From NCBI RefSeq assembly GCF_017348835.2, contig NZ_CP071375.1: a stretch of DNA of 64,000 bases. One strand, given 5' to 3'. The position numbers were made by a program. Shown here piece by piece: positions 1 to 6,000 of this stretch (its first letter is position 1; every line of letters begins with the position of its first letter). This stretch comes from Escherichia coli (GTDB taxonomy: Bacteria > Pseudomonadota > Gammaproteobacteria > Enterobacterales > Enterobacteriaceae).

Positions 1-3000
1 TACGACTGATATCTGCCCGCACCCAACACTCAAACAGGGCAATTAAAAATTTCCCCCACAGCTCTGCTGTCACCGAAGCGGCCGTCAGATCGCCCAGTTC
101 ATCAAATTCAAGATGGGGAATGAGCTGTACGGAGCGGATGCCCCGTTGTTTGAAATTGTGATAAAAATCGGCAGGTTGCAAAGCATCCTTATACTCTACA
201 ACCAGTTTATGCCTGTCCTCTTCAGCATCAATGACCTGACTTCCTGTCATGCGACTCTCTCAATAAATACGATAAGTTGATGTATATGCGTTACAGCAAA
301 CAGTATTGCGAGAGATAACACCGCGAGGGAGATCAAAAATTTGTCACGGACTACGTGAAATTGGGAAAAATCGCTATTCGTGACATCCATTAAATTGCGA
401 TTACGGGTGTAGTGCCAGAGGATCAGCGCCACGATGGCGAGGATGCCAGTCGAAATCCAGAATAACATGCCCGCCTGGTGCCAGTTGTGTTTGATAGCCA
501 ACGCCATCAACGCGCCGTAGCCCAGCATGGTACGAAACCACGCCAGTGATGTGCGCTCCGGCTGCAGTCCTGGGTCGGCAATGCGTCTGGCTTTGAGGCT
601 ATCCGGCATACAACACCAGTCCCATAACGATCACCGCCACGATCATCAATATTAAGCTGATGATTAATAAGCTGTTGGTGTAGGGCAGGTCCTCTTTCAG
701 ACGCATCGCTTTTTCATTGCGTAACCAGCGCAGGTAGCCATACATCGCTAACCCGCCGGAAAACAGACACAACAACAACGCCAGCAGTTCACGAATGACA
801 GGCGTGGCGAAATCTGGCGCAAGTTGATCAAGCCCAACCCCCGCCGCCAGAAATCCTAGTGCGGTACGGATCCACGCCAGAAAAGTACGCTCATTAGCCA
901 GCGAGAAGCGGTAATCGGGCGCTTCTCCAAGGCGGGAAATTTTCATTGTTGCTCCTTTGCAATTTCACTAACGCTCTACCTTTAGCAGTTTTTTTTAAGA
1001 ATTTCGTCCGCCCGTTTCCTGATATGCTTTTGCCATCCGCTACAAGGAGGTCAGATGGGTATCATAGCGCAAATTGACATCCTCCACGCCCTGAAGGACG
1101 TGGATCCCTGCTACGTTCAGGCTGTCGCCTGAATCATTTCGGTGGGTTCCTGCTTCAACGGGCGGCCTGACTGCACCATCCCTCCACAGGCAAGAACGGC
1201 GTGCCCCGCCGCTAAAATGTTACGAGCGCCGTTTACATCGGCGTTCGCTGTATATCCACATACCTGGCATCTGAATTTACTTTGTGACAGGCGATTTTCT
1301 TTCGCTGTATGACCACAGCACGCGCAACGCTGGCTTGTGTACGCTGGCGGAACAGCAAGCACCTGACCGCCACGCCAGAGCTGCTTGTACGCAAGCTGGC
1401 GGCGCATTTCATACCAGCCCTGATCCAGTATCGAACGGTTTAAACCTGATTTTGCCCGGACATTGCGCCCCGGCTGGCTGACCGTACCCGCTGCTGACTT
1501 TGACATGTTGCTGACCTTCAAATCCTCAATGACTATCATTGCGTGGTTTTTGCTGACGGTCGTTGTGACTTTGTGAAGGTAGTCCCTGCGGATATTTGCG
1601 GTACAGGAATGCAGTCGCTGTATTTTGCGTTTCTGCTTCTGCCAGTTATTGCTGAATTTGACCTTGCGGCTTAACTGTCGCTGAAGTCTCGCCAGCTTCT
1701 TCTGGTTTTTCTGAAAACTGTTTACAGGCTCAAAGACTGTGCCATCTGACAGCGTGGCGAGTTTAGCCACGCCAGCATCCAGCCCGACCATTGATGCTGA
1801 AGGGTGAACCGGAGTTGATACTTCACTTTCTGTCTGAATACTGATGTACCACTTACCGCAGGACTGGCTGACAGTGACATTTTTCACAACTCCCGTGACC
1901 TGACGGCTGTTCCGGTAGCGCATCCAGCCCAGTTTCGGCAGAAAAATACGGCTGTTTTCCTGATCGAGCTTAACGCCCTGCGGGTAGCGGAATGCATCAT
2001 TCTGTCCCCGCTTTTTGAATCGGGGAAAAGCAGCCCGATTCTGGAAGAAGTTTTTGTAAGCCCGCTCAAGGTCTTTCAGTGACTGTTGCAATGGCTGTGA
2101 GGGCGAATCTTTAAGCCATTGCGTTTCAGTGGCGTTTTTCCACTCAACCAGCCAGGAAGCCATTTTCCCATAAGGGATGTATTTATTACCGGCCTCATGA
2201 TTCTCATTCTGAAGCGCCAGAGCACGATTGAAAACGAAACGACATGCGCCTGCGAAGCGCCTCATTTCACACTCCTGTTGATCACCTGGTCTTAACTGGA
2301 ATTTAAATGCCTGTAGTCGTTTCACAGGCCAAATGATACTTTGGTCTGTGAAAAAAGAAACCGATATCCGGCGTGGAAGGCATTGTGTTTTCCTGATGCA
2401 TGTTCACCTGGTCTTTGTCACCAAATACCGACGCCAGATTTTTGACCATGACGCGACAGAAAAACTACGCACTTACTTTTCAAATGTATGTGCTGATTTT
2501 GAAGCTGAACTGGTTGAAATGGATGGCGAACCAGATCACGTCCATTTGTTAATTAACTATCCTCCCAAACTGGCGATATCCAGTCTGGTAAACAGCCTCA
2601 AAGGCGTATCGGGTAGGTGACTGCGACGAGATCGACCAGATATTGCAGTCAGGTATTACTACAAAGGCGTTTTGTGGAGTCCTGGCTATTTTGCCAGTAG
2701 CTGCGGAGGTGCGCCAATATCCGTCATCCGCCAATACATTGAACAACAGCAAACACCTGGTCAGGTGGAAAACCGCGCCTTATATCCCCGCCCTGAAGGA
2801 CGGGGTTTTACGGCGCACCGGATAAATTTGGTTATGCGCCGTCAGCCGTGCTAAAGAATACGGACCAGCACCCAACGGATGCCAGTCCACACAATTAACG
2901 TAACTCTGGCCAGTACGCTTTGTTGGCCTCCAGCAATTCATCCAGAATAGCTTTGGCGACTGAGGCGCTCGGTACCGTTTTCGACAAAGTAATCGCCTGC

Positions 3001-6000
3001 CACAGGTGCTGATATGAACGCTGTTCCCAGGCGTCCACGACCAGTTTTTCCACCGCCACTTGCTGACTCATTAACCCTTTCTGAAACTGCGGGATATCGC
3101 CGACCACCAGTGGTTCTGGTCCGTTGTGCCCGACCAGACACGGGATCTCGACCATCGCTTCATCATCAAAGTTATGGATTGCCCCGTTGTTAGGCACAAT
3201 CAGCAACATCCGCTCCTGAGTGTTGAAGGCAATTGCCGCCGCCAGATCGACGATGTATGACGCATGTTCGTCAATCTCCAGCTTGCCCGCCGCTGAATTT
3301 CCTGCCGCCGTAATGGCGCGGCAAGCATCGAAAACCTGTTTCTCGCGATGTTCCATCACCTCATTCGCGCGGATATGTTCAGGGTTGGAATGCTGAACAA
3401 CATAATCCGGGAAGAGATAATATTTCAGATAGGTGTTTGGTAATGTATCCGGGTCCAGTGCCTGGACATCCCGCGCTTTTGCATAGGTGTCGTTCCAGCT
3501 CGCTTCAGTATGCGTATCTTGCTGCGGTGGAACATAACCGTGCTTAGAGACATATTGCCGCAGCTGGGGCATCAGGTCGTTGCCCTGCAAATCTTCAATT
3601 GATGTCCACCAGCCAAAGTGGTTCAGGCCGTAGTAGCGCACGCGCATCTGTTTGCGATCTTGCAGCCCAACAATTTGAGCCATCCGGCTTTCAATACCGA
3701 TTGGCATGTCACAGATGTTGAGGATTTTCGCATTCGGGCGCAGACGACGCGTGGCTTCTGCAACAATTGCTGCCGGGTTGGAGTAGTTGAGCATCCAGGC
3801 ATTTGGTGAATATTTTTCCATATAATCCACCAGTTCCAGGACGCCGCCAATGGAACGCATGCCGTACGCTATTCCGCCGGGTCCGCAAGTTTCCTGACCA
3901 ACAACGCCGTGGCGCAGCGGGATTTTTTCATCCAGTTCGCGCATCGGGTATTTGCCGACGCGGATGTGCGCCATGACAAAATCAACGTCGCTGAATGCCA
4001 CTTCAGGATCGGTGGTGTAACTAAACGCAATATCCGGCGCTTTTTCTTTAAGGATGACTTTACAGGCTTCGGCAATCACTTCCTGCCGCGCACCATCGTT
4101 ATCATAAAATTTCAGTGCACGAAGCGGGAAACGGTCCTGATTCGCCAGGAGCATCAACACGATGCCTGGCGTAAAGGTGCTTCCACCGCCTGCGACAACC
4201 ACTGAGAATTTGGTCATTATACTGCCTCCGTAATGGCAACATTTTCTGCTGATTGATGAGAATTAATTAAGCTATCGAGCTGTTCACGCAGCTGGGATAC
4301 ATGCAGACCAATGATCACCTGAATGGCATCGCCACTACGGAAGACGCCGTGCGCTCCCAGCTTTTTAAAGACTTCGTCATCCAGCGTTTGTGACATGTCA
4401 TGCAGTGCAATACGTAGACGCGTCGCGCAATTGTTGATGCTGGAGATATTGCCGACCCCGCCCAGGGCTTGCAGGATACCGGCAGCCTGATCCAGCTCTT
4501 TTTTTGGCTCTGCCGCGGTGGTTTGGCCTCGCGAGGCTTTGTATTCGGCTTTTGAGTAGAGTTTCACTTCCGCATCTTCACGTCCCGGCGTGCACATGTT
4601 GAATTGCAGAATCAGGGTGCGGAAAACCACGAAGTACAGCAGGGTAAAGCACAACCCAATGGCGATTTGGGTCAGCATCATATCCGCGTGGTTGCTGAAC
4701 ATTGGGATCCAGTTTTGCGGTAAAACCTGGTCAATCAAACCACCGCCCATGTTGCCCACCACACCAAAGAGATACATTACGGTCGACATTGAGGCCGCAA
4801 GCACAGCGTGTACCGCAAACAGCAACGGTGAAATGAACAGGAAGGTAAATTCCAGCGGTTCGGTAATTCCCACCAGCATGGCGGTTAAGGTTGCGGGAAT
4901 CAGCAAACCCGCCACTTTTACCCGATTTTCCGGTGCGGCAGTGAAGTACATCGCTAAAGAAATGCCCACGGCACCAAAGATTTTTGAGTTACCGTGCAGG
5001 GCAAAACCGCCTTCCGGGAACAATGATTTCAGCGGCTCGGCGCTCAAACTGAACTCTTGCAGATGCTGCGCCCAGTACATTTGAATGCCGCCTTCAACAG
5101 CTGCCGGACCAAAGATAAACGGTCCGTAGATGAAGTGGTGTAAACCGGTTGGGATCAGAATACGTTCGAGGAAGGTGTAAACCCACACCCCAAGCGCACC
5201 CGCCGAACGCAGGAACGCTTGCAGAGATTCAATCCCCATTTGTACTTTTGGCCAGCCGAGCAATGTCAGCCAGGCACAGGGGATCATCACCAGGAAGGCG
5301 ATAATCACCACATAAGACGTCCCCTGGAAAATGCCGAGAAAAACCGGCAGTTTTTTATCGAACAGACGGTTATGCAGTGCCGTCACAATGCCGGAAATGA
5401 TAATTGCGCCGATAATGCTGGTATCGAGGGTTTTAATCCCGGCCATCATTGTCAGACCGCTACCTGCCACCGCGTCCTGAGTGAAATCGACGCCGAAGTA
5501 ACTTCCCCAGGTCATTCCCATCGCATTAATGAAATAGTTCCAGGTCAGGAAACTCACCATCACCGCCAGACAAGCACGCCCCTGCGCTTGCTTAGCAAGG
5601 CCAATGGGTAAACCGACAGCAAAAATCAGCGGCATATTACGGAATACCGTCCAACCGCCCTCTTCAATAATGTGTACGATTTGCGCAAATAAACTGTTTG
5701 GATCGGTCAGTGATTCCCCGACAAACATCGGGTTTTGCAACAAGATGGCAAGACCCACCACAATCCCGGCGAAGGGAAACAGCAGCACTGGCGTAAACAT
5801 CGCGCCGCCAAAGCGTTGAATTTGACTGAGCATTTCCACATCCTCTTTTCTCAATTCTGTAAGTAGGAAGCCTGATTGGTTATGCGGCAGGCCTGGAGCG
5901 AGGATAGGAAGATGCGATCGGCAGAACATGACGACCCAATGGGATTCGTGATCGCTTTCATGCTTTTCGTTGGGCGTTAGAGATCTACGTTTTCGCGAAA

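Follow-up and report, generated by a model that had tools for sequence, protein, structure and literature searches.

The 64,000-nucleotide stretch of Escherichia coli chromosome analysed here (contig NZ_CP071375.1 of assembly GCF_017348835.2, hereafter referred to as the window) carries a two-gene operon, glvC–glvA, which is very probably the glv operon of E. coli in its ancestral, uninterrupted state, orthologous to aglA–aglB of Klebsiella pneumoniae and to glvC–glvA (malP–malA) of Bacillus subtilis. Both genes lie on the minus strand: glvC (the aglA ortholog; 4217–5833) encodes a component of the phosphotransferase system (PTS) in which EIIC and EIIB are joined in a single chain of 538 amino acids, and glvA (the aglB ortholog; 2895–4217) encodes a predicted NAD+/Mn2+-dependent 6-phospho-α-glucosidase of 440 amino acids belonging to glycoside hydrolase family 4 (GH4). 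This state is already known, being the ordinary ancestral form of a familiar operon, and it is already annotated in approximately 1,650 other complete E. coli genomes. In strain PE164 (NZ_CP114128.1; from a pig in Nanjing), which is 100% identical to the window over the stretches tested, the Prokaryotic Genome Annotation Pipeline (PGAP) of RefSeq places genes at exactly the above coordinates and flags neither as a pseudogene. The first-pass annotation of the window had described a complete GH4 frame of 440 codons and a single EIIC–EIIB polypeptide of 538 residues, and both descriptions are borne out by the open reading frames (ORFs), by the PGAP coordinates and, for the transporter, by an end-to-end profile match.

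The 3′ end of glvC and the 5′ end of glvA are tightly apposed, the stop codon of the former and the start codon of the latter overlapping by one base at 4217. At its 5′ end, glvC is embedded in a longer ORF of 625 codons (4217–6094, minus strand), within which the internal ATG at 5833 yields the 538-residue protein; this ATG is preceded, at a distance of 7 nt, by the Shine–Dalgarno sequence GAGGA. The 87-codon extension upstream of it gave no domain match in a profile search, and it reaches into the promoter region of the divergent yidP gene.

GlvC is unambiguously predicted to belong to the α-glucoside EIICB proteins (AglA/GlvC/MalP) of the PTS glucose family. It scores 959.2 bits against TIGR02005 (α-glucoside-specific PTS IIBC; cutoff 607.3), with residues 2–523 aligned on profile positions 1–524. 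The constituent domains are recognized by PF02378 and PF00367: EIIC spans approximately residues 10–346 and presents the GITEP motif at residue 322, whereas the phosphorylation-site residue of EIIB, Cys469 (codon at 4427–4429), resides within the sequence NNCATRLR. Moreover, GlvC can be aligned lengthwise, through both domains, with structures of the E. coli PtsG EIICB (e.g. PDB code: 8QSR). Profile searches found no EIIA domain in GlvC, and the PGAP annotation shows no EIIA gene within the operon. The same protein (WP_000952127.1) is encoded, without a single difference, by PE164, EDL933 and E143.

GlvA is, judged by its sequence, a clear member of the GH4 6-phospho-α-glucosidase group (GlvA/AglB/MalH/PagL), in keeping with its PGAP name, 6-phospho-α-glucosidase. 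Two Pfam domains account for most of the chain, namely, Glyco_hydro_4 (PF02056; residues 6–184, 1.8e-66) and Glyco_hydro_4C (PF11975; residues 195–415, 1e-55); these scores, like that of GlvC against TIGR02005, lie far outside what chance would give. Among structurally characterized enzymes, it is closely related to the 6-phospho-α-glucosidase AglB from K. pneumoniae (PDB code: 6DUX; 89% identity over 439 residues, 915 bits) and GlvA from B. subtilis (PDB code: 1U8X; 73% identity, 748 bits), and a 16-residue block and the PNTYL block are identical between GlvA and these solved enzymes. A glycine-rich motif, AGGGS, occupies residues 9–13, and Cys169, Asp170, His200 and Tyr263 are all present, each being retained in 118–120 of 120 homologues; from structural work on B. 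subtilis GlvA, we take the former to bind the dinucleotide, and the latter four to serve catalysis and metal binding.

The integrity and family membership of the genes are shown here, as are the lesions of K-12 and how often each occurs, whereas the substrates, the dependence on Crr and the regulation we infer from the homologous agl system of Klebsiella and glv/mal system of Bacillus. Phosphate would pass from phosphoenolpyruvate through EI and HPr to the general EIIA-Glc (Crr), in keeping with a locus that encodes no EIIA of its own, and from there to Cys469 in the EIIB domain of GlvC. The EIIC domain would then import an α-glucoside and release it phosphorylated on the O6 of its glucosyl moiety; the substrates of the Klebsiella and Bacillus systems include methyl-α-glucoside, isomaltose, maltose and sucrose isomers. 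In the cytoplasm, GlvA would convert the phospho-α-glucoside, by an NAD+/Mn2+-dependent oxidation–elimination reaction, to glucose-6-phosphate and the aglycone. Lastly, the divergently transcribed YidP, a regulator of the GntR/HutC type, probably represses the operon. Published work on the homologous systems agrees with this scheme: AglA and GlvC depend on E. coli Crr, and the systems confer growth on isomaltose (PMC5309279); GlvA needs a 6-phosphorylated substrate and has been assayed with added Mn2+ and NAD+ (PMC10628242).

In K-12, the same locus is broken. The MG1655 annotation lists glvG (b4556), a pseudogene of 815 bp, and, as separate genes, glvB (b3682; 161 amino acids) and glvC (b3683; 368 amino acids), and alignment of a K-12 derivative with the window defines the two lesions behind this arrangement. 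The first is a deletion of 508 bp from the hydrolase gene, corresponding to window positions 3117–3624 (minus strand) and flanked by an 8-bp direct repeat, GAACCACT; as 508 = 3 × 169 + 1, the deletion shifts the glvA frame, which accounts for the glvG pseudogene. The second is a nonsense mutation in glvC, in which codon 369 (4727–4729, minus strand), CAG in the window, reads TAG in K-12 (Q369*; window position 4729): GlvC, therefore, terminates at 368 amino acids and 'GlvB' restarts at Met378, giving two frames in place of one. In the window, both frames are open. The K-12 arrangement cited in the first-pass annotation, i.e. a glvG pseudogene with separate glvC and glvB frames, thus matches the MG1655 annotation and the traced lesions in every detail. 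K-12 would, on this evidence, have lost the pathway through two lesions of unequal distribution: the repeat-mediated deletion in glvA, which half of the species shares, and the Q369* mutation in glvC, which is specific to its lineage.

The K-12 fragments have also left their mark on gene nomenclature. RefSeq gives the full-length EIICB the name 'PTS sugar transporter subunit IIB'. The NCBIfam equivalog NF007255 (PRK09702), which was built on the 161-residue GlvB of K-12, matches residues 378–538 of GlvC with 372 bits (cutoff 321) and, as it derives from this fragment, the intact EIICB is mislabelled in thousands of genomes.

To place the window among the states of the locus, we counted these across 5,426 complete E. 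coli genomes. Single-base and junction alleles were sought with 55-nt queries that had the site at their centre, such that every 28-nt megablast seed had to include it. The glv locus is present in 4,279 genomes, always in the same position between yidL and yidP and at 95–100% identity, and is absent from ~1,150; in one of the genomes lacking it, yidL directly adjoins yidE. A sense codon at position 369, and hence a fused EIICB, is found in 3,925 genomes, against 348 with the stop codon, and all 12 of the rows sampled from the latter were K-12 or laboratory strains. The 508-bp glvA segment is retained in 1,652 genomes (30%), O157:H7, BL21 and the BL21 derivative C41(DE3) among them, whereas 2,619 carry the K-12-type deletion junction. 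Overall, a fused EIICB is the rule in the species, and glvA is full-length in a common minority; in ~2,270 complete genomes, or ~40% of those sampled, a dead hydrolase gene has an intact EIICB gene beside it. The intact state reported for the window in the first-pass annotation is, therefore, real, but the implication that it is peculiar to this strain does not survive these counts. In the literature, glvC appears in a table of genes tied to the comparison of commensal and pathogenic strains by Touchon et al. 2009 (PMC2617782).

Several observations weigh against an intact, working ancestral operon. None of the NCBIfam GH4 models reached its cutoff with GlvA, the best being that for the α-galactosidase subfamily (178 bits, as against a cutoff of 486), and it is, therefore, the identity with the solved enzymes from Klebsiella and Bacillus that supports its specific assignment. 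A literature search found no E. coli with an intact glv operon for which growth or enzyme assays have been published; the matches were a B2 type strain negative for palatinose, turanose, maltitol and methyl-α-glucoside, a non-specific mention in the context of ST131 and a list of enriched accessory genes. Upstream of glvC, the 295-bp control region (5834–6128) yielded no sigma-70 consensus promoter (at least 8 of 12 matches). Within GlvA itself, residue 282 (codon at 3372–3374, minus strand) is isoleucine, encoded by ATC, where other E. coli have threonine (ACT or ACC). Among 120 homologues at 76–92% identity, this position is threonine in 118, serine in two and isoleucine in none, and the alignments read for five solved GH4 phospho-glycosidases likewise show threonine in each; the Thr-Arg-Ala motif extends even to the distant solved GH4 enzymes 6VC6 and 6WBT, and to the 6-phospho-β-glucosidase 1S6Y. 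Ile282 directly adjoins Arg283, the first residue of an Arg283-Ala-Asn285 segment that is invariant in the homologues and intact in the window, and the conserved Thr(Ser)-Arg-Ala-Asn block (residues 282–285) is, therefore, broken at its first position. This arginine presumably binds the sugar phosphate in GlvA, and nothing was found in the open literature on the structural role of Thr282. Given the clear family membership of the protein, the broken block is a point lesion in a family member, rather than evidence against homology.

As the private T282I substitution lies at a conserved position, open frames do not prove a working pathway. The allele is confined to one of the 5,426 genomes, PE164 itself, and relative to the ACC codon of the E143 type it represents a single C-to-T transition. 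It is quite conceivable, if somewhat less probable than its converse, that the pathway is dead behind its open frames: T282I would disable or cripple GlvA, making the gene an early-stage pseudogene and adding one more independent loss of glvA to a species in which the locus has decayed repeatedly: besides the 508-bp deletion, there are genomes with deletions next to the IS, with a GlvA::TnpB fusion or with no glv locus at all. The strict conservation of residue 282, down to enzymes as divergent as 1S6Y, and the rarity of the allele speak for this; conversely, a single substitution by a residue of similar size may be tolerated, the catalytic and metal-binding residues of GlvA are all intact, and Ile282 could stem from a sequencing error in the one genome that shows it. 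In favour of function, both genes are under purifying selection, the transporter is the same protein as in EDL933 and E143, and the segregating codons of glvC, described below, fit a working pair. We put the enzyme being functional in this particular strain at roughly even odds. The first-pass suggestion that the strain may retain a functional α-glucoside PTS pathway accordingly stands as regards the open frames, but function does not follow from the frames alone, given T282I and the lack of a sigma-70 consensus promoter.

A second possibility concerns expression. For the divergent glvC–yidP control region (5834–6128), we infer functional assignments from the sequence and from motif scans only. 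A CRP-like site, TGTGAGCACTGGTACA, at 6012–6027 agrees with the consensus at 8 of 10 positions and is a candidate activator site; shortly downstream of it in window coordinates, an AT-rich inverted repeat with 8-bp arms, ACATCTTT-AAAAA-AAAGATGT, occupies 6039–6059 and could be an operator. YidP (6129–6845, plus strand; PF00392 and PF07702, corresponding to a winged helix and a UTRA domain of a GntR/HutC-type regulator, at coordinates given by PGAP) is the presumed repressor of the operon on account of its position and family. Near 6012–6064, no recognizable −35/−10 pair was seen and, in view of this and of the missing sigma-70 consensus upstream of glvC, the operon may depend on an activator or else be silent. 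It might then be intact but cryptic, in the manner of bgl, asc and chb, i.e. silent under normal conditions and with no phenotype unless activated by mutation. We regard this as possible but on the unlikely side. In its favour, the AT-rich tract and inverted repeat at 6039–6064 resemble silencer or operator sequence, and all five glvA-deletion genomes sampled have an intact glvC which, if expressed, would load the cells with a non-metabolizable sugar phosphate; additionally, the K-12 homologues of aglA and aglB have been called cryptic or truncated (PMC5309279). It is opposed by the CRP-like site, as a poor −35 element is frequent among promoters that depend on CRP, and by strong purifying selection on both genes (pairwise pN/pS of 0–0.03 for glvC and 0.06–0.07 for glvA), which argues for expression and use at least some of the time.

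The pattern of selection on glvC also bears on whether the two genes act together. In the five sampled non-K-12 genomes with the 508-bp glvA deletion, glvC is in every case an open frame of 538 codons (at 1160–2776 of each locus), and two of the five encode exactly the GlvC protein of the window. Across the segregating codons of glvC, 29 synonymous and no amino-acid-changing differences were counted in three genomes with full-length glvA, as compared with 17 synonymous and six amino-acid-changing differences in six genomes with the glvA deletion (Fisher p = 0.005, for a small and non-independent sample of nine genomes). The contrast suggests that constraint on glvC lasts only as long as glvA is alive and that, where neither gene has been lost, the two function as a unit; it is consistent with a relaxation of constraint on glvC after loss of the hydrolase. 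As an expressed GlvC beside a dead hydrolase would load the cell with uncleavable phospho-α-glucosides, one might alternatively suppose that GlvC has a role independent of GlvA, be it in sensing, in regulation or in transport on behalf of another hydrolase, or that such strains are naturally sensitive to α-glucosides through sugar-phosphate stress. We think this improbable, and the segregating-codon test, small as it is, points the other way. The question touches the present strain directly, since its GlvC adjoins a possibly crippled hydrolase.

Around the operon, the gene order runs yidG, yidH, an IS609-like element, a yidL remnant, glvA, glvC, yidP, yidE, ibpB and ibpA. The element, of the IS200/IS605 type, spans 1074–2821 (minus strand) and lies directly downstream of glvA. 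It comprises an intact tnpB (1117–2325, minus strand; 402 amino acids), which is an RNA-guided nuclease gene, and a tnpA (2333–2620, plus strand) reduced to a pseudogene by an in-frame stop at 2621–2623. It replaces 4,666 bp of the K-12 map, comprising yidJ and yidK in full, the greater part of yidI and all of yidL but its last 77 nt (2822–2898). The same IS/yidL junction occurs in 302 of the 5,426 genomes, and the queried IS stretch has a median of four matches per E. coli genome. In relatives, deletion has extended from the element into the operon, marking glv as a decaying locus. In strain M23917, the whole of glvA and the greater part of glvC are gone; in 1332KP (NZ_CM173849.1, 4530–5849 of the retrieved locus) and NCTC9040 (NZ_LR134247.1), window position 3369 is in effect joined to ~1595, such that an in-frame chimera of 439 amino acids, GlvA(1–283)::TnpB(C-terminal 157 amino acids), is encoded and labelled by PGAP as a TnpB-family protein. 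The joint falls at a short shared patch, ATA(C/T)CCGC, which is the same patch that contains the Ile282 codon of the window, and this codon creates a perfect 8-bp match, ATATCCGC, with tnpB exactly where these other strains carry the fusion. The overlap of the fusion joint with the Ile282 codon is probably a coincidence. A templated dinucleotide change, copied from tnpB, was considered as the origin of Ile282 and set aside as probably coincidental too: against the ACC of E143 the change is a single transition, and the 8-mer ATATCCGC occurs five times in the window, with approximately two expected.

Two further explanations can be dealt with briefly. That the intact operon was recently acquired by this strain through horizontal transfer, as the adjoining IS element might suggest, is very unlikely, as the locus occupies the same yidL–yidP position in the 4,279 genomes noted above, its G+C content (0.50–0.54) is like that of its flanks, K-12 differs from it by just the deletion, the stop codon and scattered point changes, and the element lies outside the operon, in place of yidI–yidL. 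Similarly, we give very little weight to the notion that this is a β-glucoside (arbutin) system, which stems from the old K-12 names 'arbutin-specific PTS' and '6-phospho-β-glucosidase' and from older tables (PMC2617782), in which glvC is entered as 'arbutin specific PTS permease': the β-glucoside PTS models match just the ~80-residue EIIB part of a protein that the α-glucoside IIBC model covers with 959 bits, and 6-phospho-β-glucosidases score 150–210 bits against GlvA (210 for 1S6Y), four- to six-fold below the α-specific enzymes, of which 6DUX is 89% identical.

An ancestral, uninterrupted glv operon, thus, remains the reading that we favour for the window. Its significance lies in the reference used: K-12 represents a degenerate state of glv, and models and annotations based on it mislead for the rest of the species. 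As there are at least five states of the locus, and as T282I illustrates that open frames alone are insufficient, predictions of the use of α-glucosides (isomaltose, palatinose, other sucrose isomers and methyl-α-glucoside) should be made strain by strain. Beyond such bookkeeping, the finding matters little.

The operon can be compared with several known counterparts. One of them, glvC–glvB–glvG of K-12, is the same locus, flanked by yidP, yidE and ibpBA and with ~98.5% nucleotide identity, yet the Q369* mutation that splits the EIICB and the frameshifting 508-bp deletion in the hydrolase gene are both absent from the window; K-12, in turn, retains yidI–yidL at the site of the IS609-like element. 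Other E. coli strains resemble the window more closely in the operon itself. BL21 and C41 share the full-length glvA segment and the sense codon 369, and O157:H7 EDL933 has an identical 538-residue transporter (WP_000952127.1) together with a 440-residue hydrolase. The latter differs at three positions, where EDL933 has Thr282, Ser43 and His217, and EDL933 also keeps yidI–yidL. His217 of EDL933 is itself out of the ordinary, the residue being proline in 119 of the 120 homologues and in the window; 'intact' glvA alleles of other lineages, therefore, also bear unusual substitutions.

Outside the species, aglA–aglB of K. pneumoniae has the same gene order, an EIIC–EIIB protein without EIIA being followed by a GH4 enzyme, for which AglB structures are available (PDB codes: 6DUX and 6DVV). 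This system uses E. coli Crr and supports growth on isomaltose and sucrose isomers (PMC5309279). It differs in having threonine where the GlvA of the window has Ile282, and in that the E. coli genes are known here from their sequence, with the tie between GlvC and AglA made through TIGR02005. The more distant glvA–glvR–glvC (malA–malR–malP) operon of B. subtilis shares the NAD+/Mn2+-dependent GH4 chemistry and the catalytic blocks, at 73% identity between the two GlvA proteins, and its transporter is likewise an EIICB and requires an EIIA encoded by a separate gene (PMC5309279). Its organization is distinct: the hydrolase gene comes first, and an RpiR-type regulator is encoded between glvA and glvC, whereas in E. 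coli the transporter gene comes first and the GntR/HutC-type YidP is divergently encoded.

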